Shown here piece after piece: positions 765 through 19,998 of a stretch of DNA of 20,000 nucleotides (positions are counted from its first letter, which is position 1; the number at the start of each line of letters is the position of its first letter). A program made the position numbers and the translations under genes. The stretch is from an uncultured virus (IMG/VR IMGVR_UViG_3300033121_001188) (taxonomy: Duplodnaviria; Heunggongvirae; Uroviricota; Caudoviricetes), in IMG/VR virus record IMGVR_UViG_3300033121_001188, one strand, 5' to 3'. The notes beneath the pieces are model-generated. The model was not told where the DNA came from, ran no database searches, and saw only the letters and a program-made list of their open reading frames with translations.

Positions 765-1463
765 TTATGCTACGTATGCTTTTTTCTTGATTACGTTGCC
801 GTAATACTTGAATTCTGGTTTTTGTGTTTTATTTGTGTCTTGAATATTAGCACTGAGTTTTTCTTCTGGGGCGATGATTTGCTTTCCGGCGAATAGTTCC
901 AATACTTTAGATGCCCTAACTCATAGATTTTCCTCTGCGTATTCTGCTATATATGACAGAAACTTTGTTTTTGTTGCTTCGTCTCTTTCTTTTTCAAAGT
1001 TATAGAGAGCCCTGATAAACAACTTGTGTTCTGGTAATACTTGCACAGATGATGATTTTAGTTCAAGGTTTTCTTGTAATAGCTCGACGTTCTTAGCTGT
1101 CAGTAGTTCTACGGTTTTCTTTAATCAGACATTTTCAACCTGTAGTTGTGCCTTTTCTGCGGCGTGTTGCTTTAGTGCGGGCAATAGGTCTACGTCTGCA
1201 TTGTCTAGTTGTTCTTCCAATTCTTTTTGGATCTCTTCTTCAATTTCTTGTTTCGCTTCTTGTACGTGTTCTTCTACCTTCTTTTCAATTTCTTGTTGGA
1301 TCTCTTCTTGCGATTCTGTTACGGCTTCTTCCGTAACTGTTGGTTCATCTGTTGTAGTGGTTTCTTCCTGTTGGTCTGGTTGTGTAACCTGTGTTTCTTC
1401 TGTTGTTGCAGTTTGTTCAGCGTTATCGATAACGCCAGCTGCCTCTAAAATGTTTTGTGACAT
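765..1463 (-). CDS. Putative capsid scaffolding protein, 232 aa (code 25)
   Basis: Extends ORF 1125..1463 through two TGA codons to TAA at 765-767. Acidic E/Q/T-rich N-terminus, coiled-coil middle and basic C-terminus (KYYGNVIKKKAYVA). Located between portal and capsid. Confidence 0.75.
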
Positions 1464-1513
1464 TTAATATAATGTTAATGATAATCTGAGGCATCTATAC
1501 CTCTTTCGATTAG

Positions 1514-1542
1514 ATAATACAGCGCCTAACATATATTTGCAA
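1514..1542 (-). promoter_or_regulatory. Sigma70-type promoter for scaffold and capsid genes
   Basis: TTGCAA-N17-TATTAT on the minus strand, ~50 nt upstream of the scaffold ATG and just downstream of the portal terminator. Confidence 0.6.
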
Positions 1543-1554
1543 AAAAGTTCGTTA

Positions 1555-1577
1555 TTTGACATTTTTTTGACATTTTT
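1555..1577. repeat. Tandem direct repeat TTTGACATTTT x2, 11-bp period
   Basis: TTGACA at 1556-1561 and 1567-1572, immediately upstream of the predicted -35 box on the minus strand. Confidence 0.6.
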
Positions 1578-1583
1578 GCGCAC

Positions 1584-1606
1584 AAAAAAAGAGCAAATGC
1601 CCTTTT
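1584..1606 (-). terminator. Intrinsic terminator after the portal gene
   Basis: Minus strand AAAAGGGC-ATTT-GCTCTTTTTTT: a short stem with one G-U pair and a U7 tract, a few nt after the portal TAA TAA. Confidence 0.6.
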
Positions 1607-1612
1607 ATGTTA

Positions 1613-3619
1613 TTATATTGCTTGTCAAGATACAAGCGGTTGTGGTAGCTGTTGTTGCTGTGCCTGTTGTTGCGGTTGATACTGTATCCCAACTTTTTCA
1701 AATAATTGCGCTCTAATATTTTCGTCTCATACGGCCAATATATCCTCTAGCCTCATTGTAAGAGATATATTAACTGGTTTAACCTCTGGTCATTCCACTG
1801 GAGGTATATACTTATTCCTTATCTCTTCTGATTCTTTTAGATATTTATATCTTTCTTCTTGTTCCGCTTTTTTATCTGCTGGAGTTTGAATAAGCTCTGA
1901 TATTCCAGCAAGCTCATATATCTTATCTACAAGAGCTCTATAGTTCGTTGGGTTCTCTCATGTTACTGGATCTGGTGGCAATCCCTGCACGTATTGTATG
2001 ACGCTCACGAGCTGCTCTAATTTATCCGCGTTTCCTCCTATAAGGTCATCTGTGCGGAATGTTATGTTATATCAGTTAGATATATCTTTGACAGTAATTG
2101 ATTGTATTTCGTCATCAGACATCGAATCGTCTAGCTCTATGTCTTGACCATGAGCTTTTATAAGCAATACACACTTCTCAGCTGCATTTGAAAGGCTTGA
2201 AGATATGTTGTTAACCAAGGATACTATCTTGTTGCTGCTTGCCTCGTATTTCAGCGATGCTCACTTTGAACTCCTTTCGATACCTCATGTTCCGCCCTCA
2301 GTATATGGGTTTAATCACACCTTCGCATTAAACTTCGTTTCAACTCTGTCTAGCTCGCTAGATAGGGCCGCTATTTGACTTGGCTCTATCACTCTGACTG
2401 GCGATATTCATGCATTTGATTGTCATGGTGCAGCCTCAATGAATCATCGTGCCTTGTATGAAAATACTTGGCTATTATTCTTATTTCTTCATATCTCTGT
2501 TTCCTTAGAGAACATTGGATTACCAAGCATATTGATCGCTATCATCTTTGTCTCTTGAAGTCTATCGGCCTCTGCCTGATACGATGCTCACATGTCTCAT
2601 AGTCCTGATCAGTACACTACTCATGGTATTATCTTGTTCCTAAAGTGGACTATTGGCGATCACTCAAACGCATATTGCGATGGTCACCGATAGATCATCT
2701 CTTGGTTAATAATAACGCAATTATATGTAACATATTTTCCGTTGGTCTCTTTTATGTCAACAAATAAGTCAATAACTTCAAAACTATCATCACTAATAGA
2801 ATAGAACTCTTTTTCACTTTGTATTTGTCACCTTTGTATTGCAGATAGTAGTGAATCTGTAGTGCGCTGCGCGTCACATATTACCTTGTTCTGATATGAT
2901 TTAATGTCCTTGACTCTGTTATAATCGTATAGATAGTATCATTCCTTATCTTTAATGAGATCTCGCTTTGTTGGTTCAATTGTATACAGCTCTCTTATCT
3001 GCTTCTCTGTCATGAAGCATCTGTCTCCTGATATTCTATTTAGTCAATACGGATCTATGATGGCGTCAAATACAGATACATATTTTAATACTGGATAACT
3101 CATAGAAACATCATGAGATACGACTTCCGTAGATCAATCCTTTTTCTTTTTATAGTTATCTACAATAGACAAGTTCTTGTTTTTCCACATGATCTTTAGG
3201 AATCCATTTCCCGTTAACAGTGCTTCGTCAATAGCTTGGTTGATGGCAAGATTATTGTCCTCTCTTGAAAATATCCACTGGCAAGCCTTTTCGTACATCT
3301 TTGCCCCCTTGTTGTTTTTTTTACCAGCATACGAAGCGGCCCTTACCCTTTTTAGATTGAGCTTACTGAGCATTCAAGAAAATGTATTGTGCGCTCTTTC
3401 GATAAGATCTGTCTTGGAGTCAGGATTATACTGCCGCTCCAATCAAAGCTCCTTCAGCACAAGAAATCTTCTTGCGTTATATCACAACAAGTTTTCATAG
3501 TCCCTTATCCAGCATGGAACGTATTTGCTTTGTATGTACGAAGTACAAGAACTTGCCCGCGCAAGCATTTGGTCTCTTACTTCTTCTGGAGTGAGATTGT
3601 CTATTTTTTCGATATTCAT
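1613..3619 (-). CDS. Portal protein (P22-like), 668 aa (code 25)
   Basis: Single frame with no TAA/TAG. Motifs typical of P22-like portals: AIDEALLTGNGFLKIMW, YVSVFDAIIDP, IPGVVYGSGLGDMGASYQ, VGLNPYTEGG...SKGASL, GYNITF, DPVTG, and a Q/P-rich C-terminal tail. Confidence 0.88.
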
Positions 3620-3638
3620 TTATTGTATAATACAGCTA

Positions 3639-4070
3639 CTAAAAGAATGTTCAGCCATCCGTGTTTGATTTTACTCTAGGTAATTCCCTTTTATCTATAA
3701 CGACAGGGTCTTTCCCTCTGCTTATCCTAGTTATATCAGCCAAGGCCTTGAGTCACTTCAGCATTGCTCATTTTTCATCGAACATGTAATCTCTTTCCGT
3801 GTAGCTAACTAGTTTTTCCAGAAGATAGTCTACTACATTAGTAGAGTCTCAATCTGTTTTGTCACTTATTTTTTCAGACGCCTTTTGTCTTATTGCTGCT
3901 GTCAGCTCTTTTTCACTTCGGAATGCTGATTGATCTAATATTACTACTTCATTTTCTTGAGGGAGTATACTGGTCGACTGAGATTGCTGCTGTTGCTCAT
4001 TTGATAACTCCTCTGTAGTAGTTTGTTCTGTTGGTTTCGGCTCTTGTGAGCGCTTTTTCTTTACCGCCAT
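3639..4070 (-). CDS. Hypothetical protein, 143 aa; possible terminase small subunit
   Basis: Extends ORF 3849..4070 through TGA to TAG TAG. The C-terminal half (VVDYLLEKLVSYTERDYMFDEKGAMLKGLKALADI) resembles the TerS oligomerisation helices. It sits directly before the portal and overlaps the upstream gene by 233 nt. Confidence 0.6.
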
Positions 4071-7000
4071 TTAGTGTCCATGCTGTTGATAAAAGCTCGT
4101 AGTTACGAGTTACAAATTTTTTCATATCCAATGCATCTTTGAATATATCTATTGGGTCATATTTACCTCATATTTTCTTTCATGACACTCTTCCTGATGT
4201 TCATCATGACTTTGGAAGCGAATCGTCTTGCACTGTTTTTATTATGTATTCCTTTGCCCGATCGTTTATATAGTTAGATGATGCGAACAACTCTCACAAA
4301 GCCCTGTCTCCAAATTCTCTAAGCTCTGGGTATTTTCATGGGTTATTAGTGTATTCTAACAATGCATCGTAGTTATTTTTGAACATCTCTGTCATCACAA
4401 CCGCCTTTGCATCTTCAGATATTGGCATTCATCTCACTGTTGACAATTCATCTCCCATAAATGCAAGCTTGAATCTAGCGGTTAACGAGTCCCTATCTCT
4501 CTTCTCTTTTTCGTTTTTGGGTTTTACGCCATCGTTGATATATATTTTGCTTGCCATAAGAGATAGCTCGGACAGCTCTCATGTTTTTGGAAGCTCTCAC
4601 TTGGAAAGTCTTCAAAACATTTCTAGCCTTTTTTGTACATAGGCCTCTTCTCATGGCGTCGGCGTAATTCATACTACTCCTTCTTGGTATTTGTTTACAA
4701 CTGTCATATAAGCTGGATTGTTAGCGGCCTGCACCAATGGTAGAAGCTTTTCCGCAATAGCTAATTTTACATTTCTTCTGTATAGCTCGCTGGACGATTC
4801 TGATTTGTCAATTACGTCTATATACATTGTTCAGTCTGGGTTTAACCCTATTTCATGTTTCTTTTTCAACTGCTTGGCAGACAAACCAAATTCAGACTCT
4901 GATATAAAGTCTCATTTTTTAACTTCTTTTATTCAGTTGACAGTGGCTATATATCAGTTTGCTGGTACATATACAATGTCTCATTTTGTTGCGCTATCTA
5001 CTAATTGGTTGGCCATATATGTTAACAACGCATAAGATGTTCATGGTCCTCAGTTTTTCAATAGACCAATTGCCTCTCAGTGTGCCTTCATAAGCTTATC
5101 TGTTTGGCTTCCAGCAACCTCCAAGAATTTTGCATACACGTCTCATCATCACATTGATTTCGCAAGAGTGGCTTTATAGAGATCTGTTATCTCGTCGTTT
5201 ATTACTGATCACTCTCCCTCAACTGCGGCCGTATTAAACACAACCTTAAACACAGCATCCTCAAACTTTTTCTCGTCCTTCGTATTACGATAGAGCTGCT
5301 GTCGTTTTTGTATTGCCGATTGGAGTACGTTGTCTCATGCGTAGAATCATCTGATTACAGTATCTGAGTTCAGCTTATCGACCTTCTCGTCTACTTTTTG
5401 CGCAAATGGTAAAATAGACGCATAATCCTTTGTGTTGGATATAATAGTCTTGAATGCCTTTGTAATTGGGCTGTTTTTCCACAATAAGAATGGATAGTAT
5501 ATTCACTTAGTCTCTGCGTTTAGTAATACATTGTTGTAATCCGCCCTTTCTCTTGCATTTGTTCTCATGATCGCTTGTTGTGACTCTAGGTTTAACGCTT
5601 CGTTGAACTCCCAGTTTTTTTCTGAGAATAGCGCATCTCAAAGAGTTCCTTCATCATCAATTGCGATGTTTCTTTTAATTGTATTTACGTTTGCGAAAAA
5701 AGTCTGTGAAATAGCTTCTGTGAAGTAATCTCGTCCTTTGCCGTCTGTGGTCGCAGCGGCTCATACGAGTCCAGTAACTAATCTAGATACGGCTGGTAGC
5801 AATCTAATTTGTCTGCCAAACTCCCTAATAGACTGGTTAAGTCACTTATATAATGCGAACTTTGTTCAAGCGTCTAGGTATCAGTCTATTGTCTCAACCA
5901 CTACCCTTCAGTATGAATTCGCCATCACTCAAGCACTCAGTAAAGAAAAGTTCGCTAGATTGGATAATCTATCAATATAGTTCTTGTCTGGCCTTCATTG
6001 TATCCTATTTATTCTCTGCTCTCGTAGCAATCAGTTCAAAAGCATTGCCATTGCAGCTTGAAACTCTAGCGCTCAAAGTCCATCTGTAAATTGTGATAAC
6101 GCTTCCTTTACTCAGCCGTTCCTAAATCAGTTCACGGCTCATACGAACGGCGTTGCAAAGTTTCTGGCATGGGCTTTCATGACGGCCAATCACCATCATC
6201 CCATATACATTCGTAGCCTATTAGCGGTAGCGGCGATAGACTCATTTTGAGCCTCTTGTGCAAACTTAGCAGCGCTGAATCATCTTAGTGTTGGCATAAA
6301 AACATTTTCTGCCCTATCTGCTATCTTCTGTAATAGATCTGCTTTTCAAAGTGCGTCTGCCTGTCTATATTGTGTCAAAAATGCCTTTACTCATCAGAAC
6401 TTCTCGGCTGCGGCTTGGAAGGCAAGCTTCTTTACTTCTGGATCGAACACAGCTTCTGCAATATCTCACGTGTTAGATACGTTTGGCTGAAACTTGCTAT
6501 TCAACAGATTATTTTTATACGATCTTATAACGCTGCCTATTTGCCTCCAAGCCTGTACTCATTTTTGATATGTGTCCTTATTTAGGCCAGTTGTTGTAAA
6601 CTCGTCTAACTCTAAGAACGCCGTATTGTTACGTATGTATCCTTCGTTGATCATTAACTCTAGCATCTCAGAAACATCTTGATCGGAGTCAAACAACAGT
6701 CTGGAAAATGTTGCATACTGTGTTTTTGATTGAATGGCTTGTGGTATAAACTGATAATGGCTTAATATGGGACCAAATATTTTCGCAGCCTTACTAATTC
6801 GCTTAACCCCCCTATAAACCCCCCTTTGCACTGCTCACCACGCTCATGCAAGTTCCTCTAGGCTCTTTCATCATAAGTGCTCTAGTATGCCAGTTAGTTC
6901 GTTTACCTTTACGTTCCAAAATTCGTTTGTTTGTATATATCTTGCAAGGTCTGGAGATAGTTGCTCGTAGCTTGCGAATATGTCATTTCACGTAAAGAAC

Positions 7001-7527
7001 TTCTCCAGCGCCATTGGTTCTTTGCTAGAAGAAAGCACGTCCTTTACTTTTTCTGATGCCTGTATAAACATCTTTTGTACTGCTGGATCGAACTCTGATC
7101 TTTTCGAGTTAACTTGTAAGTACTTTCTTGTATTTCTAAGAGAGCTTTCAATGTCAACTATATACTTGGGATTCGATCTTGCCCATCTGAGATATTCAAG
7201 AGACGTATTGTCTCATATTGACAATCACGACTTAATCCTATCAATATCAAACTCTACTGCGTCTTGTGGTCTTTCAACATAGTCAAATTGTCATACGGAT
7301 TCTTTTATAAATGTTCAAACCTTTCATGCCTTACTTTGCTTCTTTGGTTTTTCGTAGAACAATTGTTTAATTGACTGCTCTATGTCTATTTTGCCAATAA
7401 ACGGCTGCACAATGCTATTGTATTTGTTTTGCGCCGCTTTTGGTAATTTTTTCAAGAATCATCCAAACAAGGCTTGCGTTTCCTCTGTGATGTCTTTATC
7501 TAGTTGCTTGATGTCGCAGTATGTCAT
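3838..7527 (-). CDS. Large putative virion ejection (internal) protein C, 1229 aa (code 25)
   Basis: ATG at 7527 (MTYCDIKQLD...), one frame without TAA/TAG to 3838, containing ORF 6559..6831. Helical composition, Gly/hydrophobic segments and a basic Gly/Lys-rich C-terminal tail. Function is inferred from size, composition and context. Confidence 0.78.
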
Positions 7528-7528
7528 G

Positions 7529-10500
7529 CTAATTACATGGATTATTGATAGATTGTATCTGTTCGTCTATTTCTTGCACTATTTCGTTAGACTGCTTATA
7601 CGTTGGTGTTTTCTTTATCTTCTGTTGATAAAACATACTGTCTGGCGTCTTATCAATTAGTTCTATAGCAGATGGCCTTGACACAATATCCTCTATAGCA
7701 GATAACTGTTGTTGATTTCATCAAAGCGCAGCTATTACCGTTTCTCATATATTGGCATCCGCAAATTCTCTTCTAAGATTATCTTGTATCAGTTTTATTG
7801 CATCTGCAGACGGAGATCATGACAATAAGTCAGTAACCCTTATTCCGTCTATCGTTGCTTCTTGTATTACGGACATATCATTAACATAAGCGTTGAATGA
7901 GGTCTGGATGTCGGCATCTGCCGATATACTATATGTTCATAATCTTTGACCTTTTTTGATAGATGATACTACATCTTGGTATCATTTGATTATATTTTCT
8001 ATTGTTTGTGGGTCTGCTCATTGAGCGAGCTCTATCAGTTGTTTTGGAAGAGCGATCTCTCATTCGTATCCATTGATAGTACTGAACACTGGCATATTTC
8101 TTCTAATCAGATCTACGTCACCTATTTTGAATCATATATAGTCTGACAAGTATTTTGTAGATAGATTCTCGGCTATGTTTTTATCAAGTACTACCAATAA
8201 ACTTCAAAGAATGTATTGCTTAGTCTCGAACGGTAAAGTCTTCAGTTCGTTTGGTATATCTCTAATCGGAGCCGCATCTCACAGCTTGTTTGCATAATAT
8301 CTTATTGCTGTGTCAATATCGAATTTGTAAATCTTTCATCTAAATGGTATAGTTGTATATCCATTTTCAAGTAGATTTTTTATAATATCTGATTTTGGGT
8401 TGTTGGCTCTTTGTTCTATGGCTGTTGATATGCCCTCAAACCATGACTTTATATTTTGCTTTGCATCTGTAGATAATTGTTGCTCGTTTCAGAAACTAGG
8501 TACTTTCAATAAGCTTTCTTTCGCTAAGACAGTCTGGACAGTCGGCTGAGTAGATGAGGCTATCTTAATAGTGCTAAACAGATCTCAGTATTCATTCACA
8601 ATGCTTTGTAATTCCGATCTTAGTTTAGACCTATATTCTGAATTTACCTCTTGTGCGCCGACTCACGATAATCACTTAGATGCTCTGTAATAATCATCTA
8701 TCAATGACTCTATCTTATTACCAGCTTCCTCTAGCCCATATTGTATTTGTTTGTACCTTGTTGGCATGTTGCCGTCCGCAAGGGCTGCATCAAATTGCTC
8801 AAACAATGAGTCAGACGCTCAGTCTAAGTCTATGTACCTATTACTCAATCACAATGTCCTCAACGCTCATTCATTTATTACTCATGAGACAGGAGAAGAC
8901 TTCCAAACGCCTGATGCTTTGCTGTCGCGAATTGCCTCATATGCCGTTCATACGACTTTTTGTAGTAATAGAGCAGACCTGTAATCATATTGCAAGTTCT
9001 TTCTTTCCATGCTTGCCACAACTGTTGGATTTGCAGCGGCAAACGCATTAACGGTTGCAAGCATCTGATACTTTCAACTCTCTCATATTGTATTCGAAAC
9101 GTCCAACAGTATCTCTTGGTATTGCGCTTTTGTGGCCTTTCATTCCTTTGCATCTGCAACAAAATCAGATAGCTTGTTCAGAAACTTTGGTATATATCAT
9201 TCGTTTGCAACAACGAAATCGACTATTTCAGATAGCCCGTATGATCAATATGGTATTGATAGTGATTTACTTATAGAATCAGCTAGGTACTCCATTGCCC
9301 TATAATCTGTTTTATTGAACGCCTGTACTGCTGATACGTCCACTCATAACAACAGCTGTGCTAACGGAGCTGGATCTGATTCATATATGTAGGAATAGAT
9401 TTTACCAGCCATGTCCTTTTCTGTTTTTGTCGTCATGCTCTCAACCAATCATGCTATTGATTGTTGTGGTATTCAGCCGAAGTGGAATATATCAGAAGCA
9501 AGTTTATCTGCCAAGGACAATAGCAAAGCTGACGCATCTCATGAGCGCAAAATTCACTTTATTCCAGATAGCGCCTCTTCTTTATCTACGGTTCATTGTC
9601 TCAGCTGGCTTGTGTATTCTACAACGTCTGCTGTTTTTTGGATGTCATAAAAGTTGGCTGGAGTGACGCTCAATCATACGTTCATGTCGCTCTGCACCTT
9701 TGGGTATCTTATGGATACAACCTCATTTATTAACTTTTGCGTCTCTTGCTCTGGTAAACCCGTTTGCAAGACTCTGTCGAATACTTGATCGAGACCAGCA
9801 AATAGTTTGCTAAGTCTTGAGGCGCTCGGAGCATTCACGGTGAGCCTATCGGCACTAATGCCAAACCTATATCCTATTATAGGCATTACCAGTTTCACAT
9901 CTAATTGCTTTGCTTTCCTTTCTACTTCCCTAGGTAGTTTTTGATAACTCGAAAGAACCAATGTTGACCCCTTATGCTGTTCTATTATAGACATAAGATC
10001 AGATCAGCTTGCTTTAACAGCGCTAAATCATGAGTCCACTGAATTTTGTTGGTATAGCGCGTCGTATAATTTTCCATCAGCAGTGTCTATTGCTATGTCG
10101 TTTTCAACTAATATAATTGGTCTTTTCTTTTTTCACGATACCTTTAGCTTTCAAGCGGTTATGTTTGAGATCAAGGATTTTCTTACAGATGCCTCTAGGC
10201 CGTTTTCACGTATTTGATTACTTATTTCGCTTATGTACTTAGGTTTATTCGCCTGTATAAACTTATATATGTCAGAATCAATTGATCACGATATATCTAT
10301 ATAGTCTTTATATATTTGCTTTTTTATTGCGTCGTATATTGCTAATACGTCTTTATCGTCTGACAGCGCGTCAATCTGGCTCTTTGCTCATAATATCAGG
10401 TCAATACGCTCGTTGCTGAGACCAAACACTCATGCTATATCGCGCACTGGCACAATTGTGCTTGATCACTTGATTTGATCTGCTATAATATTGGATTGCA

Positions 10501-11494
10501 ACTCATTATTAGTGTATTGTATATTGTTTCTATACTTTATAGATTCTATGTTGTCTATAACAAATCATTCGCTAACGGTGGCCGCCTGCCTTTCTGATAA
10601 CGCAAATCTTAGTGCCTCAATGTGATCGTTCACGCTAAGTCATTTCCTTTTCGGTAACTTTCTGGCTAAAAATGCGTAATAATCGTCTTCACTATTGATG
10701 CTCAGCTTATCTTCAAGGATCTCATCAACAAACCTTGCTAGTCTGGCAACTACTGAAAAATTAACAGTACCCATTCAAAGCATGCTATATGCCACTATTT
10801 TTGATATTGAGCTTGGAAAATCATCTGCAAATTTTTTTGACGACACTATTGATTTCACAAAATCGTCGCTTACTCATACAGAGAAAATTCTATTTAATAT
10901 TTTATCAACATACGCCTCTTTCTCTGCCATAGACTTTCCATCTAACGACTTAGCTATGTGGTCTTGAACGTCATTTATCAGACTAAACTCCTTATCGGAA
11001 TTGTACTTTGTTATAAGATCGTCTATATCTTGTACGCTTCAAAAGATCCTATTTATTCATAGGTTAAGTTTTTCTGCTTCGTAAAACATCATAGCCGCTA
11101 ACCTGTTGAGCGATTCTCATACTGCTTTTTCGTCTCACAGTATTGCTGCGCCTCATTTTATCTTCTCGAAATTTTCAAGTGCATAAGCAAATCAATTCGC
11201 TATTGATCTGTTGAATAAACTATTCTTTCAAGTCTTCATAGACTCTATTGCTTTCGCAACGAATACTGGGCTATCGACAACGAAATTTATGCTTCAATAA
11301 AATATATTATTGGCTGCGTCTCATACCATAAGGGCAGATTGCCTTGACGCATCTACAAAAGACATATTATCTTTGTATATGTATGATTGCTCCGCAAGAA
11401 AATCCAAAAACTGTTGGTCTGTCGACTTACTAGCTCCATCAATAACACTTGTTATTATATCGTTTAATAGTGATTTGCCTTCGTAGCAGGACAT
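7529..11494 (-). CDS. Large putative virion ejection (internal) protein B, 1321 aa (code 25)
   Basis: ATG at 11494 (MSCYEGKSLL...), open to TAG at 7529-7531 (...QSINNPCN*), containing ORF 9674..9994. No catalytic motif recognised. Confidence 0.78.
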
Positions 11495-11501
11495 ATTGTA
11501 A

Positions 11502-14500
11502 TTAGCATCATAAATTCTTCAGCGGGCTTAGTACCTCATACATAGTATTGATTAGATCAGATTGTTCTATCTTTTGAGCTACGTCTTGCGTAATCTCTCA
11601 GTTAGATACCGCCTTTTGTATTCTTTCGTTTTGTAGGTTTTGTAGTTCTGTTGTAATATTGGTATTCTTTTTATTCTTGAGGTATGTTGCTGCGTCTTGC
11701 ATCTTTGCGCCGTCTGATATACTAGATTTAAGCGCATATACCTCTCACGGTCTCTCCTCGAATAAAGAGCGTAGGAATGGCGTATCATACCTATCAGACT
11801 CTCTTACTCAGTTTGCGGCAAACCACTCTGTCGTAGGAGCTTCTAGTGCATCGAATTCCTCTTTATTCAGGATTGTTCATTTGTCGTACAATCTTGTTCA
11901 TCATTCAAATTTGCTTTGTATGTCAGTTGTTTTAATCGTTATTGCTTGCGCTCCTCATCACTCTTGTATATTTAATGTCACGTTATATTTGAATTGGTCA
12001 GAAAAGTCTCATACCTTCATTGGATTGAAATCGGTTATCTTGTTTCACAGATCATCATATTTTGGTTGCTGAATAGAAACCTTGCTTGAAGCGGCACTTG
12101 AAAATCAATATGTTATTTCCTGACCATTATTTCTAGCAATAAAGTATCATAATACATCATCTGCCGTTTTTGAGTCGTCCTCTACTAGCTTTGCAAGCAA
12201 ATCTGTTCTACTCGAAACTACTCAGATATTATTTAATCACTCCTCTAGCAGCCTTATGTTCAATCATCAGTTAACGGTACTTTGCTTTACAACCGTGGAT
12301 ATATCTGTTGATATGTCGTCAACAATTGAATATTCGAACAGCTTCGTCTTAATCACTTTGTTTAACTCTTGTTCTGTAATAGATCATGCTTTGACGGCGT
12401 TTTGCATAATTAACAATGACTCCTGTCATGCCTGTCTTATTTGGTCTATGTTTTCAAGGTTGAAATTTCCTACCCCAGCATCAAATCATAATTGTTCTAT
12501 CCTCTTTGCAAGTATAGATGACGTAAGGTCGTCATAATTAGCCACCCTATCCACAAGGAACTTTCATGTTTGCGCATTTTTGAGTTTTCCTATTGCTTGT
12601 CGTCAGTCTATTGGTAATCAGAAGAATATGTCTGCCACGGCGTCTGCTTTAGAATAATCTATGCCAGCTATGCTTCATATCGTTCAGTTTATTACTGCAT
12701 TAAGCGGTAATGTTTCTCACAACAGATTTCAAACCGCAGCAACTCTGTCAAGAGTCTGTATTCTAGATATCGCCGTAGTTGCTGTACTGGCGCCACGCGT
12801 TGCAGCCGTTCCAATCCTTCATAGTGCCCCACCAACTAACATACTTGCCACAACAGACACAACGTCGTCTGCATTTATGTAAAGTCAGTTTTTAGCCTTC
12901 TCTATGATTCCTCTGCTCTCATCTGCCTGTATCAGTCTAGTTCCTACGGATCATAATCAAAGTCTATCCATATCGTAGAACCTTTGCGGTCCGACCGCCC
13001 TAGCTCATCATATATATGCCTCTCTTAGTAGATTGAACTTGTTTTCGGTCAGAGTGATTAGGTCTGACGCAACTCATATAGGTGTTGCGATAGGCGAAAG
13101 CCATCCAAAATTATATCATCCAAGTTTCAGTTTGTTCTTTATTTTGAACGACATTAGCATGTCTCATATGTTTGTCTCTGGTGTCTCTCACATATAACGT
13201 ACCTTCAGCACATCGGAGAAGTCTCATTTTCCAGACTCGAGTCTTTGCCTAGCTTCAGCAGCTGGTGCTATTTCAGAGCTCCAATAATTCTGTGGTATAT
13301 TTTTTCTCATATACTCTATTGGCGTAACCCCGTATTTTTCAATGAATCTATCTGTCGCTATCTTTTCTGATTCTTTCGTTGACTTTCAATTTATTACCAA
13401 GTTTTCAAATTGGTTTCATATTAACTCGCTGAAGGCTGGCATTATAATATCCAAAGACGTCCTCAACTTATCTGCCTCCGCAAGTACTTCTTTTCTGGTC
13501 TCTGCGTCTGCTCATGATTCATCAAGAAGCTTCACCGTCGCCTCTATTGTTCCATAGAAATCTCTTACTTTTGCGGTATGTTCATTCTGTAACGCCCTAA
13601 AAGAAACTAACGTTTCGGTTTTCATTCACGCGAGCTTTTTAGCTCACTCATCGCTCAGCTTAATCGCACCAAATGTTTCCGCCTTCTTTGAAATATCTTC
13701 TGACGGCTCTAGATTAGAGAATATTGGTTTTGCTTTTTCTAAATATTTTTGTGTTTTTTCGGCAGATTTATATACCGCTGTTACGTATGACTTGAGTCAT
13801 CAGTACGTTATGTTTATTCAGTCTGGACGTAATGATTTTAATTGGTCATTTATATATGTGTCCCTCATCTTATCGATTGAGTCTAGTCATGCTATATATT
13901 CATCTGCGCTTAGCTTTCAATTGAAAAAACTGTCTCTGAGCGACACAAATGAATCTGTATATGCTTTAGACGCATTATATAGCACCTCTTGTGCTATTGT
14001 CTTCGTAGCCCTAGATGTTGGGTCGCTAAACATCGGCATAGCGCCAGAACTGCTTGTTCAATATTGTCAGCTGTTAGCTTTGAACGCATTGAATTGATTT
14101 AGCTCATTACGCTCCGCTATTCATGTTTGATATGCCAGCCCAGCAACCGCAGCTGATCAAGAAACCGTCTCTTTGAGTCATTGGAAAAAATTACGAGTTC
14201 CGTCTATATATTCTCTTGGATTAGAGATGAGCTCTGCGGCCTGTAGGATAGCGTATCACGTAGGGTTGGTGAATGAGTCAAAAACAACAGATGCTATGCT
14301 GGATGCTTTCTCAGCAATACCGTCATATATTGACTTTACTACGCCAGAATCTGGCAGTGCGTCTGGAAGATTTGCTGCTACAACGGCATCTTGTGCAACT
14401 TGTTGAGCAGCTATAGGTGCAGCCGCTGCTATTGCGGCTTCGGTTGGCAATTGTTGTTGCGCTATATTTACTTTTTGCGCTGCCTCAAAAGCAGAGTCTA

Positions 14501-15002
14501 CTGCTGATTGTAGTTGTCATGCGGCGTTAGTGTCTGGAGCCGGTAATTCAACACCAGCCTGTTGCGCTATATTGTTTGCAAGTTTGTCTGCTTCTTGGGC
14601 GTTGACGGACTGCAATATATTCTGTGCGGCGGTTGTAGCTGCCTCTGTCGATATTTTTGACAATTCTTCTTGTGCGGCTTGTCTCTGTCATTCGTTAATT
14701 ATATTTTGTGCAGCCTGTAGCGCAGCATCAGTTGTCTCGTATGTCGGTGTTCATTGTGCTGCCTGTGTAGCAATATCCACAGCAACCTGTGGAACATACG
14801 TCTGAGCGGCTGCTGTTTCGGCAGCGGTGACTGCCTGTTGTTCAGGAGTGTATTGTAAAGCCTGCTTGGCTACATCAACAGCAACATTTGCAGGTTGTTG
14901 TGCGGCTTGTTGTGCAACAGAAATAGCGGCATTAGCCGCTGCTTTATCGTTTCATCAGAAAAGATTTTTTACATAATCGTAAGCTCTGCTTAGAAAGTCC
15001 AT
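11502..15002 (-). CDS. Large putative virion ejection (internal) protein A, 1166 aa (code 25)
   Basis: ATG at 15002 (MDFLSRAYDYVKNLFGGN...), open to TAA at 11502-11504 (...LKNLGC*), containing ORF 14256..14450. Ala/Gln-rich N-terminus and a Gly/Ala hydrophobic segment (VVSVVASMLVGGALGRIGTAA). Confidence 0.8.
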
Positions 15003-15036
15003 TTGAAGTGCATGATAATCAATTTAATAATACAGT

Positions 15037-17301
15037 CTAGTATCGGTTAGCATTCCATGGAAGCTTTGTTGTTTTTTCTTTCATTTTATTCTCATGCATC
15101 TTCATCAAGAACTCTACTGTATTCATTTCTGCTAAAGTTGGTTTCCTTTGACTCGTGGTCTCTCTTGAAAGAATGTCTCATCTGGTACCAAACAATACAT
15201 ACATAATATATACTCAGAACATCATAGCAAATGCCTTATCGTCCTTTCACACTCATACAAGCCTCTTGTATCCGTTTTTCTGTTCCTTCAATTGCAGGTT
15301 TTCGATTTCATACAAGAGCGTTGTCTGTTCCTGTCATGATGTTTTTGTTGCCAGCTCCCTATTTATTCTTACATAAAATCACTCGAATGCCTCTTGGTTA
15401 TATTTGAGTACTTTTTTAGGAGCTATGTAGAATACTCAGCTGTCTCTATATTCTTTCTGCGTATCGGTTGGCAGAGAGTACATTGGGAAGTCTATCGTAA
15501 GGCGCTGTGATTCTGCGTTGTCTATCCAAGATTTGTCTGAGGTAATATCAGCTCATACGTATACCTCGTTGTCGTAATCTATAAGTCTATCGTGCCATAT
15601 TTCCTTGAGTTGCTTTATTTGGCTTATTTGTCACTTTCTGTCGGTGTTTGCGGTAAAGGAGTCTATCACATATATTCTGTCTCACAAGATTCATAAGATA
15701 CATACTCACGGATCGTCAGATTCTGTCGCCCTGTCGAGATATATCAATATATCATCGAACTTGTCTGGTATATCGTCAAAAGCACCAGCCACATCAAGCG
15801 TTTTTTGCTTGTCCATAAGGGTCGAGAAAAATTCTGCTAACACATATGCATCTCATCTTTGGCGCCTTGCATCTTGTATATTCTTTTTAATATTGTCTAA
15901 TCAAAACCTTTTAATTTGGCTTTCAGAATCATATATGGTGTATCTCTTGCAAACAAACGGCCTTGCGTTGAAATACTCTTCTCTCAGCTGTTCAAGCTCT
16001 CTAAGACTGCTTTCTACCTGCTCTTTTGTTTTTTTGTCTAGTCAATATTTCCTCCATAGCCTTACGATTAGATCTTCGTTCTGTTCATAATCAAATTGTC
16101 TCAACTCTGCAAAAGTGGCCTGTTGATAGAACCAGTTCTTTTGTGTTGAGCTGTCTACGGTTGATATACAGAATAACAGTGTACCATCTGCAATAAGGTT
16201 ACCCTTTAGGGCGTCATAAGCTGCACGATTGCAAATGGCAGCCTCGTCTATAATTGCCGCGAATGGTCTCATACCCCTAATAGACTTAGAATCCGCCGAC
16301 ACAAACACAAGCTCTCACACGATTATCTCCTTTCACATAACTACAGTTTTGAAGTAGAGAGATTTCTTGCTCTCGACAAACTCCAAGTAATACTGTCAAT
16401 AGGATTGTATACTATTTGAGATATACGGAAATATAGAGTTCACAATTGATTCTTCTGTTGGTCCTACATATATCACCTTTCTGTGGGACAATTTATTTGA
16501 GTGGTCTTGTCACAATGTAAAAAGCTCTGCGAGCAGAGTACATATCAATGACTTTCATCATCATCTCGTCATCATTAGATAATTCTCTCTTCCATAGTCC
16601 AGCAAGAACTCTCTTTGCCATCTTTCTAGTTTTTGCTCATTTGGATCATCATGGAATCAACCAAAAAGCGACTGCACGAATCTAGGCGCATACGATCAGT
16701 AAAGAGGCGTAGTAAATGTTCAGCCGTTGTACTTGTAGGCAATGGACGTGTAATCCTCTCATATACGTGTTTTTTCTATGTGTTTGGTCTTTGATCAGCC
16801 CTCTCTCTTATAATATGATATTTCATCGAACCTATACAATCAAGACATAAAAAGCTTCATAGCCAAGAGTCAGTCGTCTATAATTCTTTCTGTTCTTTGT
16901 TTTTTCTTGAATATAGGTATTCCACTTCTGCCATATATGTCGAACTCCTTCAAGAATGATATAAGCCAGTTCTTGATCTCATCAGAAACCTTTCAGTCTT
17001 TTACCTGTAGGTATAGTCGTTTGCGAAACTCTGATGTAATGTCCTCGTATCAGTCTGTCTCAGTAATTGCTGGCACAGATATTTCTATGGGATCTAATCA
17101 ATTGTCATAGTTGAATGTTTCCCAATAGTCAAAATCGCCATACCAGTCTATAGCGAGTTGCGGATCGATACAGAATTTGGCGTTTTCTTCGTTTCAGTCA
17201 TAAAAGGCAGACCCGTCAATTGCTTTTTTATATATAAAGCCAAAATTGTATCTGTTATATTTAGCCTGTGGCGAATAACTATATCTTCAATCATTAACCA
17301 T
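15037..17301 (-). CDS. terL: Terminase large subunit, 754 aa (code 25)
   Basis: Q motif (LERWQ), Walker A TRGGGKS (three TGA codons), VIYVGPT, Walker B SIRGMRPFAAIIDEAA, coupling motif CIST followed by NWFY, and nuclease motifs IYLDRATESDD and GVGKDDKAFA. Confidence 0.93.
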
Positions 17302-17668
17302 GTATCTCTTTTATTAGTTGCTTGATAATTTTGTTTTTTTCCTTAAGTTCATTTATCTCGGACGCGTTCTTCTTCAAAGCAGACTTATATGACGCTATTA
17401 TATTTGCCTTTATTCTTTTGGCAGACTTTGGGTATAGTTTCTCCGCCTTTGCAAGTGCTTTTTCTGGATCTGAAAAACAGTGCTTTTGGTCATATTTTCC
17501 GTTGATTAGTGTTGTTATCTTTCAGTTCGAAACCTCTTTATGGATCGACTGCACGATAATCTTTTCTATAGAGTCTTCTGGACACTTTGTAAAGTCAACC
17601 TTCTGAGTAGCTAGGTCGCTAACTCGTGTTCTTACGCGGTATGCGTACATTTCTTGTCATAGTTTCAT
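17294..17668 (-). CDS. Hypothetical basic protein, 124 aa, with C-terminal coiled coil
   Basis: MKLGQEMYAYRV...KKNASEINELKEKNKIIKQLIKEIHG*. Open under code 25; its stop overlaps the terL start by 8 nt. Confidence 0.7.
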
Positions 17669-18035: not shown

Positions 18036-18470
18036 TTAATTAAATCTATTTTTAACCGACTGTATTGCGTCGTATATAGCTGCAGACTTTTTCATATATC
18101 AGTCAAATTCCTTGTGCAGCTTCAATACAATTCACATTGCCTGCAGCCTAAAAATGATGTCGTACCACGACAAATATAGTCTTTTATCTATTGGCCCTTT
18201 TCATATAGCACAAAATACCTTATGTATTGGTATTCTTTGTTTACCATTTTTTGATAATTTCTTTATAACCAACTCGGCCTCTTCATGCGTCAATGGCTCA
18301 AAGATATTTATAAACTCTCATACTATCGCTGGTGACTGGCGTAATGTATGTAATCATGCTTGTTTTCGAACACTACGCTTGCGGTAAACCCTCTCAAAAG
18401 AATCTAGCTGTTCTTCCAAGTCACCCACTCATAGCTCAAATGCTAAGTCATCTGTTATTTGCAATTTCAT
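18036..18470 (-). CDS. Hypothetical protein, 144 aa
   Basis: MKLQITDDLAFELGVGDLEEQLDSFERVY...IQSVKNRFN*. Open under code 25, directly downstream of a predicted promoter. Confidence 0.7.
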
Positions 18471-18533: not shown

Positions 18534-18604
18534 AGCATCTGACTGGAATCGAACCAGCGTACACGGCTTTGCAGGCCGCCATCTAACCACTTGATTACAG
18601 ATGC
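18534..18604 (-). tRNA. tRNA-Cys(GCA)
   Basis: GCATCTG/CAGATGC acceptor stem, anticodon loop CT-GCA-AA, T loop GGTTCGATTCC; CCA not encoded. Confidence 0.92.
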
Positions 18605-18734
18605 ATATTTGCAACCGTTGATTGACTGATGACTTTCCCAGCATGAATATATCATATAAATGATACCACATATTTATAAGGCACACAGTGTGGTAGACTG
18701 CAATACCACGCACTATACAGTACGTTTTTATATA

Positions 18735-18808
18735 TGGCGGTCCGTACGGGTAACGCTCCCGTGTTACCACAGTGACAATGTGGCGTCCTACTATTGAACG
18801 AACGAACC
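18735..18808 (-). tRNA. tRNA-Asp(GTC), atypical T loop
   Basis: CCACA-TT-GTC-AC-TGTGG anticodon arm, T loop AGCGTTA, encoded CCA. Confidence 0.8.
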
Positions 18809-18811
18809 AAT

Positions 18812-18884
18812 TGGATAGGGTTGGAATTGAACCAACTTATCTGGCTTTTCAGACCAGCGCCTATACCTCTTCGGCCTCCTATCC
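18812..18884 (-). tRNA. tRNA-Phe(GAA)
   Basis: GGATAGG/CCTATCC acceptor; CTGGT-CT-GAA-AA-GCCAG. Confidence 0.88.
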
Positions 18885-18891
18885 ATACGTT

Positions 18892-18981
18892 TGCGCCAAA
18901 AGGGATTCGAACCCCCACAACAATCTTTCAGTTGACGGGATTTACAGTCCCGCTCCGCCTACCCATATCGGACTTTGACGC
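18892..18981 (-). tRNA. tRNA-Tyr(GTA)
   Basis: CGGGA-CT-GTA-AA-TCCCG, long variable arm, GGTTCGAATCC. Confidence 0.9.
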
Positions 18982-18987
18982 ATAAAG

Positions 18988-19062
18988 TGGAGCCTCCTAA
19001 TGGAATCGAACCATTATCTCATCTTTACAAGAGACACGTAATAACCACTATACTAAGAAGGC
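18988..19062 (-). tRNA. tRNA-Thr(TGT)
   Basis: GCCTTCT/AGGAGGC acceptor, loop CT-TGT-AA, encoded CCA. Confidence 0.85.
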
Positions 19063-19064
19063 AT

Positions 19065-19136
19065 TTGCGGGAGACGGAATCGAACCGTCCTGTTCGGCTT
19101 ATGAGACCGACCTCTGACCCAGTCGAGTTTCCCGCA
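19065..19136 (-). tRNA. tRNA-Met(CAT), initiator-like
   Basis: TGCGGGA...TCCCGCAA acceptor resembling tRNA-fMet; TCGGT-CT-CAT-AA-GCCGA. Confidence 0.82.
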
Positions 19137-19141
19137 TAATA

Positions 19142-19214
19142 TGAGGACAGTAGGGGTCGAACCTACAACCACGTGCTCCCAAAGCACGCATTCTACCATT
19201 TGAAATATATCCTC
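19142..19214 (-). tRNA. tRNA-Pro(TGG)
   Basis: CGTGC-TT-TGG-GA-GCACG; GAGGATA/TGTCCTC acceptor. Confidence 0.88.
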
Positions 19215-19218
19215 TAAA

Positions 19219-19287
19219 CAGGCTGTCCTAGAATCGAACTAGGCCTAGCGGATTTGGAGTCCGCCGTAAAGACCAACAATACAGCCT
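19219..19287 (-). tRNA. tRNA-Trp(CCA), reduced D arm
   Basis: AGGCTGT/ACAGCCT acceptor with G73; GCGGA-CT-CCA-AA-TCCGC; only 69 nt long with a weak D stem. Confidence 0.78.
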
Positions 19288-19298
19288 ATGCTATATTA

Positions 19299-19371
19299 TG
19301 TCCATGGAAGGAGTTGAACCTTCGACTTGCAGATTAAGAGTCTGCCACTCTGCCAGCTGAGTTACATGGAC
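19299..19371 (-). tRNA. tRNA-Lys(CTT)
   Basis: GTCCATG/CATGGAC acceptor; GCAGA-CT-CTT-AA-TCTGC. Confidence 0.92.
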
Positions 19372-19377
19372 TTATAG

Positions 19378-19451
19378 TGGGCCCGTTAGGGATTGAACCT
19401 AAGTATCTCTGTCTTATGAGGACAGCGCCTTTACCGCTTGGCTACAGACCC
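19378..19451 (-). tRNA. tRNA with CAT anticodon (Ile2/lysidine type or elongator Met)
   Basis: GGGTCTG/CGGGCCC acceptor; CTGTC-CT-CAT-AA-GACAG. Isotype cannot be fixed by eye. Confidence 0.85.
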
Positions 19452-19452
19452 A

Positions 19453-19527
19453 TGGGGTGTACGAGGAGTATCGATCTCCCGTCTCCTGCGCCACAAGCAG
19501 GCGTTCTACCATTGAACTACATACAAC
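19453..19527 (-). tRNA. tRNA-His(GTG)
   Basis: CCTGC-TT-GTG-GC-GCAGG; G-1 opposite C73; encoded CCA; 1:72 mismatch and T loop ATCGATA. Confidence 0.83.
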
Positions 19528-19533
19528 ACAAAG

Positions 19534-19608
19534 TGGCGTATACGGTTGGACTCGAACCAACAACCAACAAATTAACAGTTTGTCGCTCTACCTTTGAGCT
19601 ACGTACAC
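19534..19608 (-). tRNA. tRNA-Asn(GTT)
   Basis: ACAAA-CT-GTT-AA-TTTGT; G73; encoded CCA. Confidence 0.92.
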
Positions 19609-19614
19609 ATAGTA

Positions 19615-19686
19615 TAACTCTGGCTGGAATCGAACCAACATCAGTCGGGTAGAAGCCGAGTGCCTTATCCGTTGGGCTACAGAGTC
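19615..19686 (-). tRNA. tRNA-Arg(TCT)
   Basis: GACTCTG/CAGAGTT acceptor; TCGG-CT-TCT-AC-CCGA; D loop CGGATA with A20. Confidence 0.88.
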
Positions 19687-19687
19687 A

Positions 19688-19764
19688 TGGTACTTATGGA
19701 AGGACTTGAACCTTCAGATCGCCAATGTATCAGATTGGTGCTTTAACCATTAAGCTACATAAGT
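19688..19764 (-). tRNA. tRNA-Ile(GAT)
   Basis: ACTTATG/CATAAGT acceptor; CCAAT-CT-GAT-AC-ATTGG; encoded CCA. Confidence 0.9.
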
Positions 19765-19771
19765 TTATATT

Positions 19772-19845
19772 TGTCTCATGTTGGACTCGAACCAACCGCC
19801 TTCAGGTTAAAAGCCTGTTGCTCTAACCAGATGAGCTAATGAGAC
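19772..19845 (-). tRNA. tRNA-Lys(TTT)
   Basis: GTCTCAT/ATGAGAC acceptor; CAGG-CT-TTT-AA-CCTG. Confidence 0.9.
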
Positions 19846-19848
19846 ATA

Positions 19849-19921
19849 TGCACAAGGTCAGATTCGAACTGACAACCAACGCCGTGTAGGGACGCTGCTC
19901 TCGCCATTGAGCTACTCGTGC
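19849..19921 (-). tRNA. tRNA-Val(TAC), C33 variant
   Basis: GCACGAG/CTTGTGC acceptor; GCGTC-CC-TAC-AC-GGCGT. Confidence 0.83.
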
Positions 19922-19922
19922 G

Positions 19923-19998
19923 TGGGAAGGTCAAGGGGATTTTAACCCTCGTCTCCTGCTTGAGAAACAGGTATGTTATTCCATTACACCATGACCTC
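19923..19998 (-). tRNA. tRNA with CTC anticodon (Glu by anticodon), atypical T loop and discriminator
   Basis: GAGGTCA/TGACCTT acceptor, C73, encoded CCA; CCTGT-TT-CTC-AA-GCAGG; T loop TTAAAAT. Confidence 0.7.

Follow-up and report, generated by a model that had tools for sequence, protein, structure and literature searches.

Phage genes apparently written with UGA as glycine and with CGG, probably also CGA, as tryptophan

Codon-level comparison with related phages suggests that the genes in the analysed stretch of DNA (20,000 nucleotides, hereafter the window) follow an Absconditabacteria-type genetic code. In this code, UGA would stand for glycine, CGG and CGA would stand for tryptophan beside UGG, and the other arginine codons would be kept. 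We give this reading a probability of roughly 80%. For CGG alone the tryptophan assignment is nearly certain, and for CGA it is probable; the data on CGA are fewer and less direct than those on CGG. The earlier note had proposed this double recoding, and the proposal is supported by codon swaps with a strain variant, by codon pairing with a more distant relative (L001) and by columns 62 and 391 of the portal family.

Gene block, UGA and codon usage

The window, part of a 76-kb contig, is a phage packaging and structural block with a GC content of 36–44%. Its gene order runs from the large terminase (TerL) through three giant proteins and the portal to capsid-side genes and a tRNA array. All window features located below lie on the minus strand. 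The portal gene (1613..3619; 668 aa, with 25 TGA, 3 CGG, 2 CGA and 3 TGG codons) matches Pfam SU10_portal (E=1.5e-9) as well as PHROG 332 and 1216, and TerL (15037..17301; 754 aa, two CGA) matches PHROG 9 over aa 222–385 (E=1.3e-8). Searches with Pfam/PHROG-type profiles gave no family match for protein C (3838..7527; 1229 aa, with 64 TGA, 5 CGA, 1 CGG and 8 TGG), protein B (7529..11494; 1321 aa, devoid of CGA and CGG) or protein A (11502..15002; 1166 aa, one CGA). Three small ORFs (3639–4070, 17294–17668 and 18036–18470) carry one CGA each.

UGA is a sense codon here and, judged from several alignments and ORF calls, it specifies glycine. The ORFs are open only with TGA readthrough, as seen when calls with and without TGA as a stop are compared. 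The portal profile returned glycine at TGA with a posterior of 1.0 over 22 columns, and the three glycines of the TerL Walker A motif GGGKS (G247–249) are encoded as TGA TGA TGA. In the strain variant, 11 of 52 GGA codons became 'W' (i.e. TGA) and 8 of 255 TGA codons became G. The 196 partners of TGA in L001 comprised 66 TGA, 26 GGN and not a single TGG.

All ten CGA and CGG codons cited by the earlier note (10/10) were found at the given place and in the given context on the minus strand, each position being the lower coordinate of its codon. The list was, however, incomplete, as 11 ORFs with 6154 codons contain 17 CGR codons (13 CGA and 4 CGG). The same ORFs hold 13 CGT, 14 CGC, 142 AGA, 71 AGG, 29 TGG and 259 TGA. 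The rarity of CGA and CGG was also borne out, with 14 among 5143 in-frame triplets of the five large ORFs against 91 and 142 of 5138 in the other two frames. Usage per 10,000 codons amounts to 21 for CGA, 6.5 for CGG and 47 for TGG, and both CGR values fall within the ranges published for Absconditabacteria (CGG <7, CGA <37; Shulgina & Eddy, PMC8629427). TGG alone accounts for 0.47% of codons, and the Trp-type codons with CGR added for 0.75%. That these codons read naturally as Trp had been a judgement from context; it is replaced here by comparisons at the codon level.

NCBI translation table 25, in which only UGA departs from table 11, does not describe the window, where CGG and probably CGA differ too. 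On the reading preferred here, table 25 would wrongly turn 17 window residues into Arg, and standard annotation would mistranslate the phage.

Codon exchange and codon pairing between relatives

A 32,929-nt contig from run X2 served as the strain variant; along 18,794 nt it shows 1215 differences from the window (6.5%). The comparison took in nine proteins with 5754 codons; apart from place 4260, the variant's codons are known solely through code-4 protein letters.

Three of the four CGG codons appear as W in the variant: portal aa 21 (3557..3559), portal aa 62 (3434..3436) and protein C aa 1090 (4258..4260). At the last of these the exchange is seen directly: contigs of runs X1 and X2 carry A for G at plus-strand place 4260, which turns the coding-strand CGG into TGG. 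The fourth, portal aa 311 (2687..2689), is R. Among CGA codons, 1 of 12 became W, namely protein C aa 243 (6799..6801), where the protein letter may mean TGG or TGA (TGA being Gly); the other 11 were unchanged. By comparison, none of the 224 CGT, CGC, AGA and AGG codons turned into W (Fisher p=1.35e-5 for CGR versus these); R was kept in 219 of them and the rest became K, H or S.

Exchange was also observed in the opposite direction. The variant has R at 4 of 26 TGG codons versus 8 of 5488 other non-Arg codons (p=1.9e-7), at TerL aa 228 (16618..16620) and aa 569 (15595..15597) and at protein A aa 574 (13281..13283) and aa 1060 (11823..11825). Altogether, 8 R/W swaps were found in 42 Trp-type codons (19%), and all amino acid differences besides G/W and R/W affect about 3% of codons. 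CGG and TGG exchange between the strains at an approximately synonymous rate; as far as sequence can tell, CGG acts as a synonym of TGG.

In the relative L001, whose portal is 37% identical to that of the window, TGA is read through as well. In the portal alignment, CGR faces CGR three times and TGG twice and never faces AGR or CGY, and ordinary Arg codons face each other eight times. If CGR were a plain Arg synonym, the probability of at least 3 CGR-CGR among these 11 pairs would be 1.3e-4. Two of the CGR-CGR pairs join a window CGG to an L001 CGA (portal aa 21, which the variant turns into W, and aa 311), and an L001 CGA also faces the window TGG at aa 145.

When all five aligned proteins are taken together, CGR faces 15 codons other than CGR, namely TGG (2), F/Y (4), LIVM (4), K (3) and others (2), with no Arg. 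For ordinary Arg codons the corresponding figures were 50 Arg and 6 F/Y partners in 175, and at these rates the CGR pattern would have P=0.006 and 6e-6. CGA taken alone has Arg partners in 0 of 11 cases (P=0.025) and aromatic ones in 3 of 11 (P=0.005). On this evidence, CGR codons are not interchangeable with ordinary Arg codons.

In protein C, whose L001 homologue (1241–5122 of that sequence) is 22% identical, the variant keeps R at aa 439 (6211..6213), 502 (6022..6024), 599 (5731..5733) and 742 (5302..5304). The L001 codons there are TAT (Tyr) in this weak 22%-identity alignment, AAA (Lys), TTT (Phe) and ATG with a TGG one column on, respectively; the CGG at aa 1090 faces ATA. The CGA at aa 51 of ORF 3639–4070 (3918..3920) faces CTA, and this ORF has no counterpart among the variant proteins. 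R is likewise kept at protein A aa 801 (12600..12602) and TerL aa 95 (17017..17019), both without an alignable relative, at TerL aa 753, the last codon but one (15043..15045), and in the small ORFs 17294–17668 (17624..17626) and 18036–18470 (18366..18368).

The earlier note had named Arg or Lys at CGA/CGG columns as a sign against its reading. Arg is absent from such pairs with L001, and Lys occurs at three CGA: portal aa 219 (2963..2965; R in the variant), protein C aa 502 and L001 aa 102 of the o3639 homologue, each a CGA-AAA pair. Among 99%-identical variants within the L001 lineage no swap was seen, CGA being R in 203/203 cases and TGG being W in 137/137.

Conserved columns of the portal family

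The portal family comprises 242 matches, and the residues of individual columns were read among the 33 closest homologues. A comparison with portal homologues had been proposed as a check. In it, sites 62 (CGG) and 391 (CGA) lie on conserved Trp/Phe/Tyr columns, 21 and 219 on hydrophobic ones and 311 on a polar one.

Site 62, which faces TGG in L001, belongs to the family motif [DE]-W/F-Q, and its HMM column is enriched 12-fold in W and 1.1-fold in R. Site 391 (2447..2449) lies in the family column P-[F/Y/W]-K, where 25 of the 31 residues from the closest homologues are F, Y or W. Four related portals have CGA, CGA (L001), W (P0007) and R (P0010) in this column; at column 37 the four have TGG, TGG, W and R. 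Column 21 is mostly L/V/I and the HMM column of site 219 is L/I/V/F/K. The column of site 311 is D/T/E/S in the wider family and thus not one that favours Trp.

A small Codetta-style test with the portal profile called neither W nor R for CGR, giving F/L/I/V for CGA (2 columns) and D for CGG (3 columns); because W had to be masked in 62 of the 100 sequences used for training, even genuine TGG was called Y>W>F. The same profile gave R/K for AGA and R for AGG. CGU, CGC, AGA and AGG remain arginine codons by these comparisons.

At aromatic columns, a family-wide portal test found R only modestly enriched relative to K (odds ratio 3.2, p=6e-7), and the 'normal' set shared this trend (odds ratio 2.1, p=0.07).

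Host, alternative readings and known codes

We assume that CGA and CGG would be decoded by host tRNAs with UCG or CCG anticodons and Trp identity, marked by G73 and the lack of A20, in line with the description of Absconditabacteria by Shulgina & Eddy (2021); a code of this type would further call for a tRNA-UCA of Gly identity. The host would be a bacterium of the Absconditabacterales type or a closely related code-25 organism that shares the reassignment. Such a host is proposed because the window code matches the published one, and this match is its sole basis. Scans of 185,579 species genomes with the portal profile and with a 35-nt tRNA-Cys core gave no match.

The strongest alternative, possible though clearly less probable, keeps the code and changes its bearer. 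The host might belong to Gracilibacteria or be an undescribed UGA=Gly relative sharing the CGR change, or the phage might have its own decoders in the unseen part of the tRNA array. The array does continue past the window end, and for some Gracilibacteria CGG=Trp has been predicted (PMC8629427). Against this, the combination of CGA=Trp, CGG=Trp and UGA=Gly is, in the literature cited here, reported for Absconditabacteria only.

An unlikely reading would restrict the change to CGG, leaving CGA as Arg, unassigned or ambiguous in a phage of a Gracilibacteria-like code-25 bacterium, for which the predicted CGG=Trp of some Gracilibacteria (Shulgina & Eddy, PMC8629427) would be a precedent. The concentration of variant swaps on CGG (3/4 versus one ambiguous case of 12 CGA) speaks for it, as do the three CGA-Lys pairs in L001. 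It is at odds with CGA391 on an aromatic column shared by CGA in L001, W in P0007 and R in P0010, with the L001 CGA codons opposite window TGG (aa 145) and CGG (aa 21, W in the variant), and with CGA partners in L001 that are never Arg (0/11) and aromatic in 3/11. In addition, CGA and CGG share one decoder, tRNA-UCG, in CPR bacteria, so that separate meanings for them would be hard to achieve (Shulgina & Eddy, PMC8629427).

That CGA and CGG still encode Arg and are simply rare, with R/W as a tolerated polymorphism at transition-prone CGG/TGG sites, is highly improbable: CGG<>TGG indeed takes one transition, variable regions contain several of the CGR sites and W was not called by the portal profile test, but swaps occur at 4/16 CGR and 4/26 TGG versus 0/224 other Arg codons, CGR-AGR/CGY pairs number zero in L001 despite the 86–93% share of AGR/CGY among Arg-translated codons, and aromatic residues are conserved at sites 62 and 391.

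The preferred reading, with both CGR codons as tryptophan, has its closest known counterpart in the Absconditabacteria (SR1). Their code of UGA=Gly and CGA and CGG=Trp was predicted with Codetta (Shulgina & Eddy 2021, eLife 10:e71402, PMC8629427) and restated later (PMC13092985); in the former source the reassignment is computational. The window resembles them in the same three codons with the same new meanings, in CGR usage level, in AGA as dominant Arg codon and in low GC. It differs in that the carrier is a phage and in the kind of support, which comes from CGG<>TGG swaps between strains and codon pairing and not from Pfam columns.

Phages are known to follow a sense-codon reassignment of their hosts in the case of AGG=Met phages from the baboon gut (Shulgina & Eddy 2021, PMC8629427). 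There too, a host's reassigned Arg codon was adopted with apparent reliance on host tRNAs, no matching phage tRNA having been found; the codon, amino acid and host phylum are different, and here a stop codon has been reassigned as well. Code-25 phages predicted to infect Gracilibacteria and Absconditabacteria (Liu et al. 2023, mBio, PMC10746230) share in-frame TGA as Gly and predicted CPR hosts with the window phage. In contrast to the present case, a second recoding is untreated in their main text, from which CGA, CGG and arginine are absent. CGG=Trp has been described in Anaerococcus and in RFN20 Bacilli/Onthovivens (PMC8629427; PMC13092985), likewise an Arg codon turned to Trp in AT-rich genomes, but with only CGG changed, CGA as Arg and UGA as stop. 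A code of this type does not fit the window, since UGA is Gly there.

In the literature we found the doubly altered code for bacteria and no report of a phage using CGA/CGG=Trp together with UGA=Gly. It is a speculative, rather improbable proposal that this is the first phage lineage with the bacterial Arg-to-Trp reassignment, that the swaps are its first non-profile confirmation and, most boldly, that the array carries tRNA-Trp(UCG/CCG) and tRNA-Gly(UCA). Were this true, the phage would carry the altered code along, beyond obeying its host, and the CGG<>TGG swaps would confirm, without profile columns, an Absconditabacterales code that is so far purely computational.

The tRNA array (18534..19998) runs off the window end and has 17 genes, 15 recognised by ARAGORN and two more by Rfam; relaxed ARAGORN confirms tRNA-Asp-GTC at 18735–18808. 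A Trp-identity tRNA with UCG or CCG anticodon had been suggested as a check; among these 17 tRNAs, neither program revealed a UCG, CCG or UCA anticodon, and the window part of the array holds no CGR decoder, a further difference from Absconditabacteria. A tRNA-Trp(CCA) missed by ARAGORN was detected at 19219..19287 with the Rfam tRNA model (31.4 bits, gathering score 29). Its anticodon loop is CUCCAAA, and by eye we read an A1:U72 pair and the discriminator G73. ARAGORN also identified a tRNA-Arg(TCT) at 19614..19687, whose codon AGA is the one used most for Arg.

The window's genes and their UGA and CGR codons

The minus strand carries all substantial genes of the window, and these have open frames only with TGA as a sense codon. 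In order, these are the large terminase (TerL; 15037-17301, PHROG 9, E=1.3e-8), the very large proteins A (11502-15002), B (7529-11494) and C (3838-7527), the portal (1613-3619; Pfam SU10_portal, E=1.5e-9, and PHROG 332 and 1216), and the ORFs 765-1463 and 2-703. Proteins A, B and C matched no family in Pfam or PHROGs. Three small ORFs are located upstream of the terminase, and six small ORFs in all had no PHROGs family. The source contig, as recorded in the protein database, is 76,195 nt long.

In this phage UGA encodes glycine, not tryptophan. With a profile of portal homologues, the posterior of Gly was 1.0 over 22 TGA columns, and three glycines of the TerL Walker-A motif GGGKS are written as TGA. 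A scan of metagenomes with the portal alignment yielded two related loci, L001 (17.3 kb, portal 37% identical, the same gene order and TGA read through) and the far relative L002 (portal 22% identical). The 196 window TGA codons aligned with L001 are matched by TGA in 66 cases, by GGN in 26 and by TGG in none. A close variant of the window has 'W', the table-4 letter for TGA, at 11 of 52 window GGA codons and G at 8 of 255 window TGA codons.

The earlier note had proposed that CGA and CGG (together CGR) are rare and encode Trp. The ten codons it listed were all found exactly where it had placed them, and their rarity was borne out: the five large ORFs hold 14 CGR in 5143 in-frame triplets, compared with 91 and 142 in the 5138 triplets of each of the other frames, so CGR is truly avoided. 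Across 11 ORFs (6154 codons) we counted 13 CGA, 4 CGG, 13 CGT, 14 CGC, 142 AGA, 71 AGG, 29 TGG and 259 TGA. TGG alone makes up 0.47% of the codons, which is low for Trp, and 0.75% is reached with CGR added. The corresponding counts in L001 (5251 codons) are 27 CGA, 2 CGG, 4 CGT, no CGC and 24 TGG.

Exchange of CGG and TGG between close variants

A word-index search yielded a protein 98% identical to protein C, encoded on a 32,929-nt contig; such searches with protein C and TerL gave nothing beyond the window's own cluster and that of this variant. Mapping of public sequencing runs onto the window placed this contig in a wastewater metagenome, run X2. It spans window positions 1-19071 and differs at 1215 of 18,794 letters (6.5%). 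We compared nine proteins of equal length as table-4 translations, 5754 codons in total.

At the four window CGG codons, the variant has W three times and R once. The 12 CGA codons correspond to R in 11 cases and to W in one (protein C aa 243, where both TGG and TGA are possible). None of the 224 CGT, CGC, AGA and AGG codons is matched by W (R 219, K 3, H 1, S 1), so that changes from R to W occur only at CGR codons (Fisher p=1.35e-5). In the opposite direction, 22 of 26 window TGG codons are W in the variant and 4 are R, against 8 R at 5488 other non-Arg codons (p=1.9e-7). One swap was seen as DNA: at place 4260, contigs of both X1 (another public run) and X2 carry G>A, which changes CGG to TGG at protein C aa 1090. 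The DNA-level check drew on 40 listed differences out of 1534, and the remaining swap sites are known as protein letters only.

In total, 8 of 42 Trp-type codons (19%) are swapped. With 6.5% DNA divergence, a rough estimate is that about one codon in six has changed synonymously; apart from G/W and R/W, amino acid differences are found at about 3% of codons. The swap rate is thus close to the synonymous one, which indicates that CGG and TGG replace each other in the manner of synonyms. This evidence is independent of the earlier prediction of the reassignment. We conclude that CGG encodes Trp in this phage, with a probability of roughly 0.95. In the L001 lineage, variants at 99% identity show no swap in either direction, with R at CGA in all 203 cases and W at TGG in all 137.

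CGR codons in distant relatives and in the portal family

Comparison with L001 provides a second view of these codons. In the portal, CGR is paired with CGR three times, at aa 21 and 311 (window CGG, L001 CGA) and at aa 391 (CGA in both), and never with AGR or CGY, next to 8 pairs of ordinary Arg codons. If CGR simply made up 6.6% of the Arg codons in the window and 14% in L001, chance would give at least three CGR-CGR pairs among 11 with a probability of 1.3e-4. At aa 62 window CGG faces TGG and at aa 145 window TGG faces CGA, while the other CGR codons pair with AAA (aa 219, window CGA) and TAC (aa 28, L001 CGG).

The earlier note held that alignment of CGR with Arg or Lys in homologues would speak against Trp. 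Across the five proteins aligned, CGR faces a codon other than CGR 15 times: TGG 2, Phe/Tyr 4, Leu/Ile/Val/Met 4, Lys 3 and other 2. Arg is absent, but Lys stands opposite CGA all three times. Ordinary Arg codons, by comparison, have an Arg partner in 50 of 175 cases and a Phe/Tyr partner in 6 of 175, and the CGR pattern differs from theirs both in the lack of Arg partners (P=0.006) and in its six aromatic partners (P=6e-6). It is similar to the profile of TGG, whose 22 partners are CGR 2, TGG 6, F/Y 7, LIVM 4, other 3, and neither K nor Arg. Single pairs from protein C are weak, since its alignment is merely 22% identical.

For CGA taken alone, Arg partners number 0 of 11 (P=0.025) and aromatic partners 3 of 11 (P=0.005). 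A reading of CGA as Gly, one step from TGA, was ruled out, as none of the 11 partners is GGN or TGA. We regard Trp as the probable meaning of CGA as well.

An exhaustive profile search gave 242 portal relatives, most of which are W-rich and G-poor, which marks them as proteins of UGA=Gly phages translated by table 4. In 62 of the 99 full-length relatives (P0010-P0158), W exceeds 3% and G is very scarce; public databases store these as table-4 translations, with Trp in place of each UGA-encoded Gly. In the alignment of this family, aa 62 (CGG) falls on a conserved [DE]-W/F-Q motif and aa 391 (CGA) on a P-[F/Y/W]-K column that is aromatic in 25 of 31 residues of the closest homologues; aa 21 and 219 fall on mainly aliphatic columns and aa 311 on a polar one. 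Four related portals show CGA, CGA, W and R at column 391, and TGG, TGG, W and R at column 37. The column of window W115 is W/Y, with R in 8 UGA-recoded relatives.

A Codetta-style test with the portal profile, which excluded the window and L001 portals from training and masked W in 62 of 100 training sequences, was underpowered. It recovered the controls (TGA as G, AGA as R/K, AAA as K, TAT as Y, TGG as Y/W/F) and returned F/L/I/V for CGA (2 columns) and D for CGG (3 columns), calling W or R for neither codon. Aromatic columns across the family show a modest preference for R relative to K (odds ratio 3.2, p=6e-7). This is not specific to the UGA-recoded set, as the non-recoded set follows the same trend (odds ratio 2.1, p=0.07).

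Searches of a viral contig collection with TerL, portal and three portal alignments gave no confirmed relatives. The portal and TerL had no tblastn match among GenBank phages, nor did the portal profile in a PDB sequence search.

Code, tRNA array, host and other features

The window is written in the known Absconditabacterales-type code. CGA and CGG were predicted to be Trp on top of UGA=Gly in Absconditabacteria, in which CGG stays below 7 and CGA below 37 per 10,000 codons and Arg is mostly AGA (Shulgina & Eddy 2021, PMC8629427); the code is restated in PMC13092985. The former paper ascribes decoding to tRNA-UCG/CCG because CPR bacteria lack tRNA-ACG, notes CGG=Trp for some Gracilibacteria, and describes phages following AGG=Met (PMC8629427). 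Code-25 phages were described by Liu et al. 2023, but CGA, CGG and arginine are absent from the text covered by a term search (PMC10746230). No phage reported to use CGR=Trp came up in the literature searched.

The window phage joins the phages written in sense-recoded host codes. CGA/CGG=Trp has so far been only a computational prediction for uncultivated bacteria, and the essential portal and terminase genes of a phage in this code are independent evidence for its use in vivo. The recoding also provides a host marker for an uncharacterised phage clade (the 242 portal relatives, most of them UGA-recoded). For annotation, both table 4 and table 25 mistranslate the proteins: public translations of the window contig use table 4, so every UGA-encoded Gly is stored as Trp, and table 25 would still place Arg at 17 Trp positions of the window.

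The tRNA array (18534-19998) runs off the window end. ARAGORN called 15 tRNAs and Rfam added two that it missed by default, which makes 17 genes within 1.5 kb. The first, tRNA-Asp-GTC (18735-18808, minus strand), was confirmed by relaxed ARAGORN. The second, tRNA-Trp-CCA (19219-19287, minus strand; Rfam 31.4 bits), has the anticodon loop CUCCAAA and an unusual D-arm region. Read by eye, it carries A1:U72 and G73, used as Trp identity marks by Shulgina & Eddy (PMC8629427). A 'tRNA-Arg(acg)' of relaxed ARAGORN on the strand opposite tRNA-Asp was dismissed as spurious (89 nt, mismatched stems, overlap with a good tRNA). UCG, CCG and UCA anticodons do not occur among the 17 window tRNAs, so CGR and UGA are read either by host tRNAs or by array genes past the window end.

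An Absconditabacterales-type host is a reasonable and fairly probable inference from the code. A 54-nt pattern from the window end had no match in the viral contig collection, and genome contigs scanned with the portal alignment and a 35-nt tRNA-Cys core gave none either. Between 18901 and 19888, some contigs of X2 and of a further public run, X4, join or skip parts of the array; 19142>19218 is one case, and another is 19686>19772, where 83 other letters lie between. The array either differs between strains or assembles poorly.

ORF 2-703 (minus strand), which has no family match and follows the portal and an acidic coiled-coil ORF, probably encodes the major capsid protein, as does its L001 counterpart (8088-9398, plus strand). 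It contains 0 TGA against 11 GGN (0 against 28 in L001), whereas about 64% of Gly codons in the adjoining genes are TGA. It lacks CGR in the window, with a single such codon in L001; the L002 homologue uses TGA 11 times. It seems that the most highly expressed gene avoids reassigned codons.

An ORF of 143 aa (3639-4070, minus strand), for which the protein database has no gene call, shares the final 233 nt of protein C, in a different frame. The arrangement is the same in L001 (4806-5276 over 1241-5122), where the overlapping ORF shows weak similarity to that of the window (E=9e-4). Possible explanations are a conserved overlapping gene, a frameshift site and an incorrectly placed end of protein C.

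Protein A holds 78 of the 188 amino acid differences between window and variant. Two of its stretches, 12782-12901 (118 nt) and 13997-14157 (159 nt), have diverged too far in the X2 variant to be aligned, with their length kept. As a virion protein, A is hypervariable, and it may face the host.
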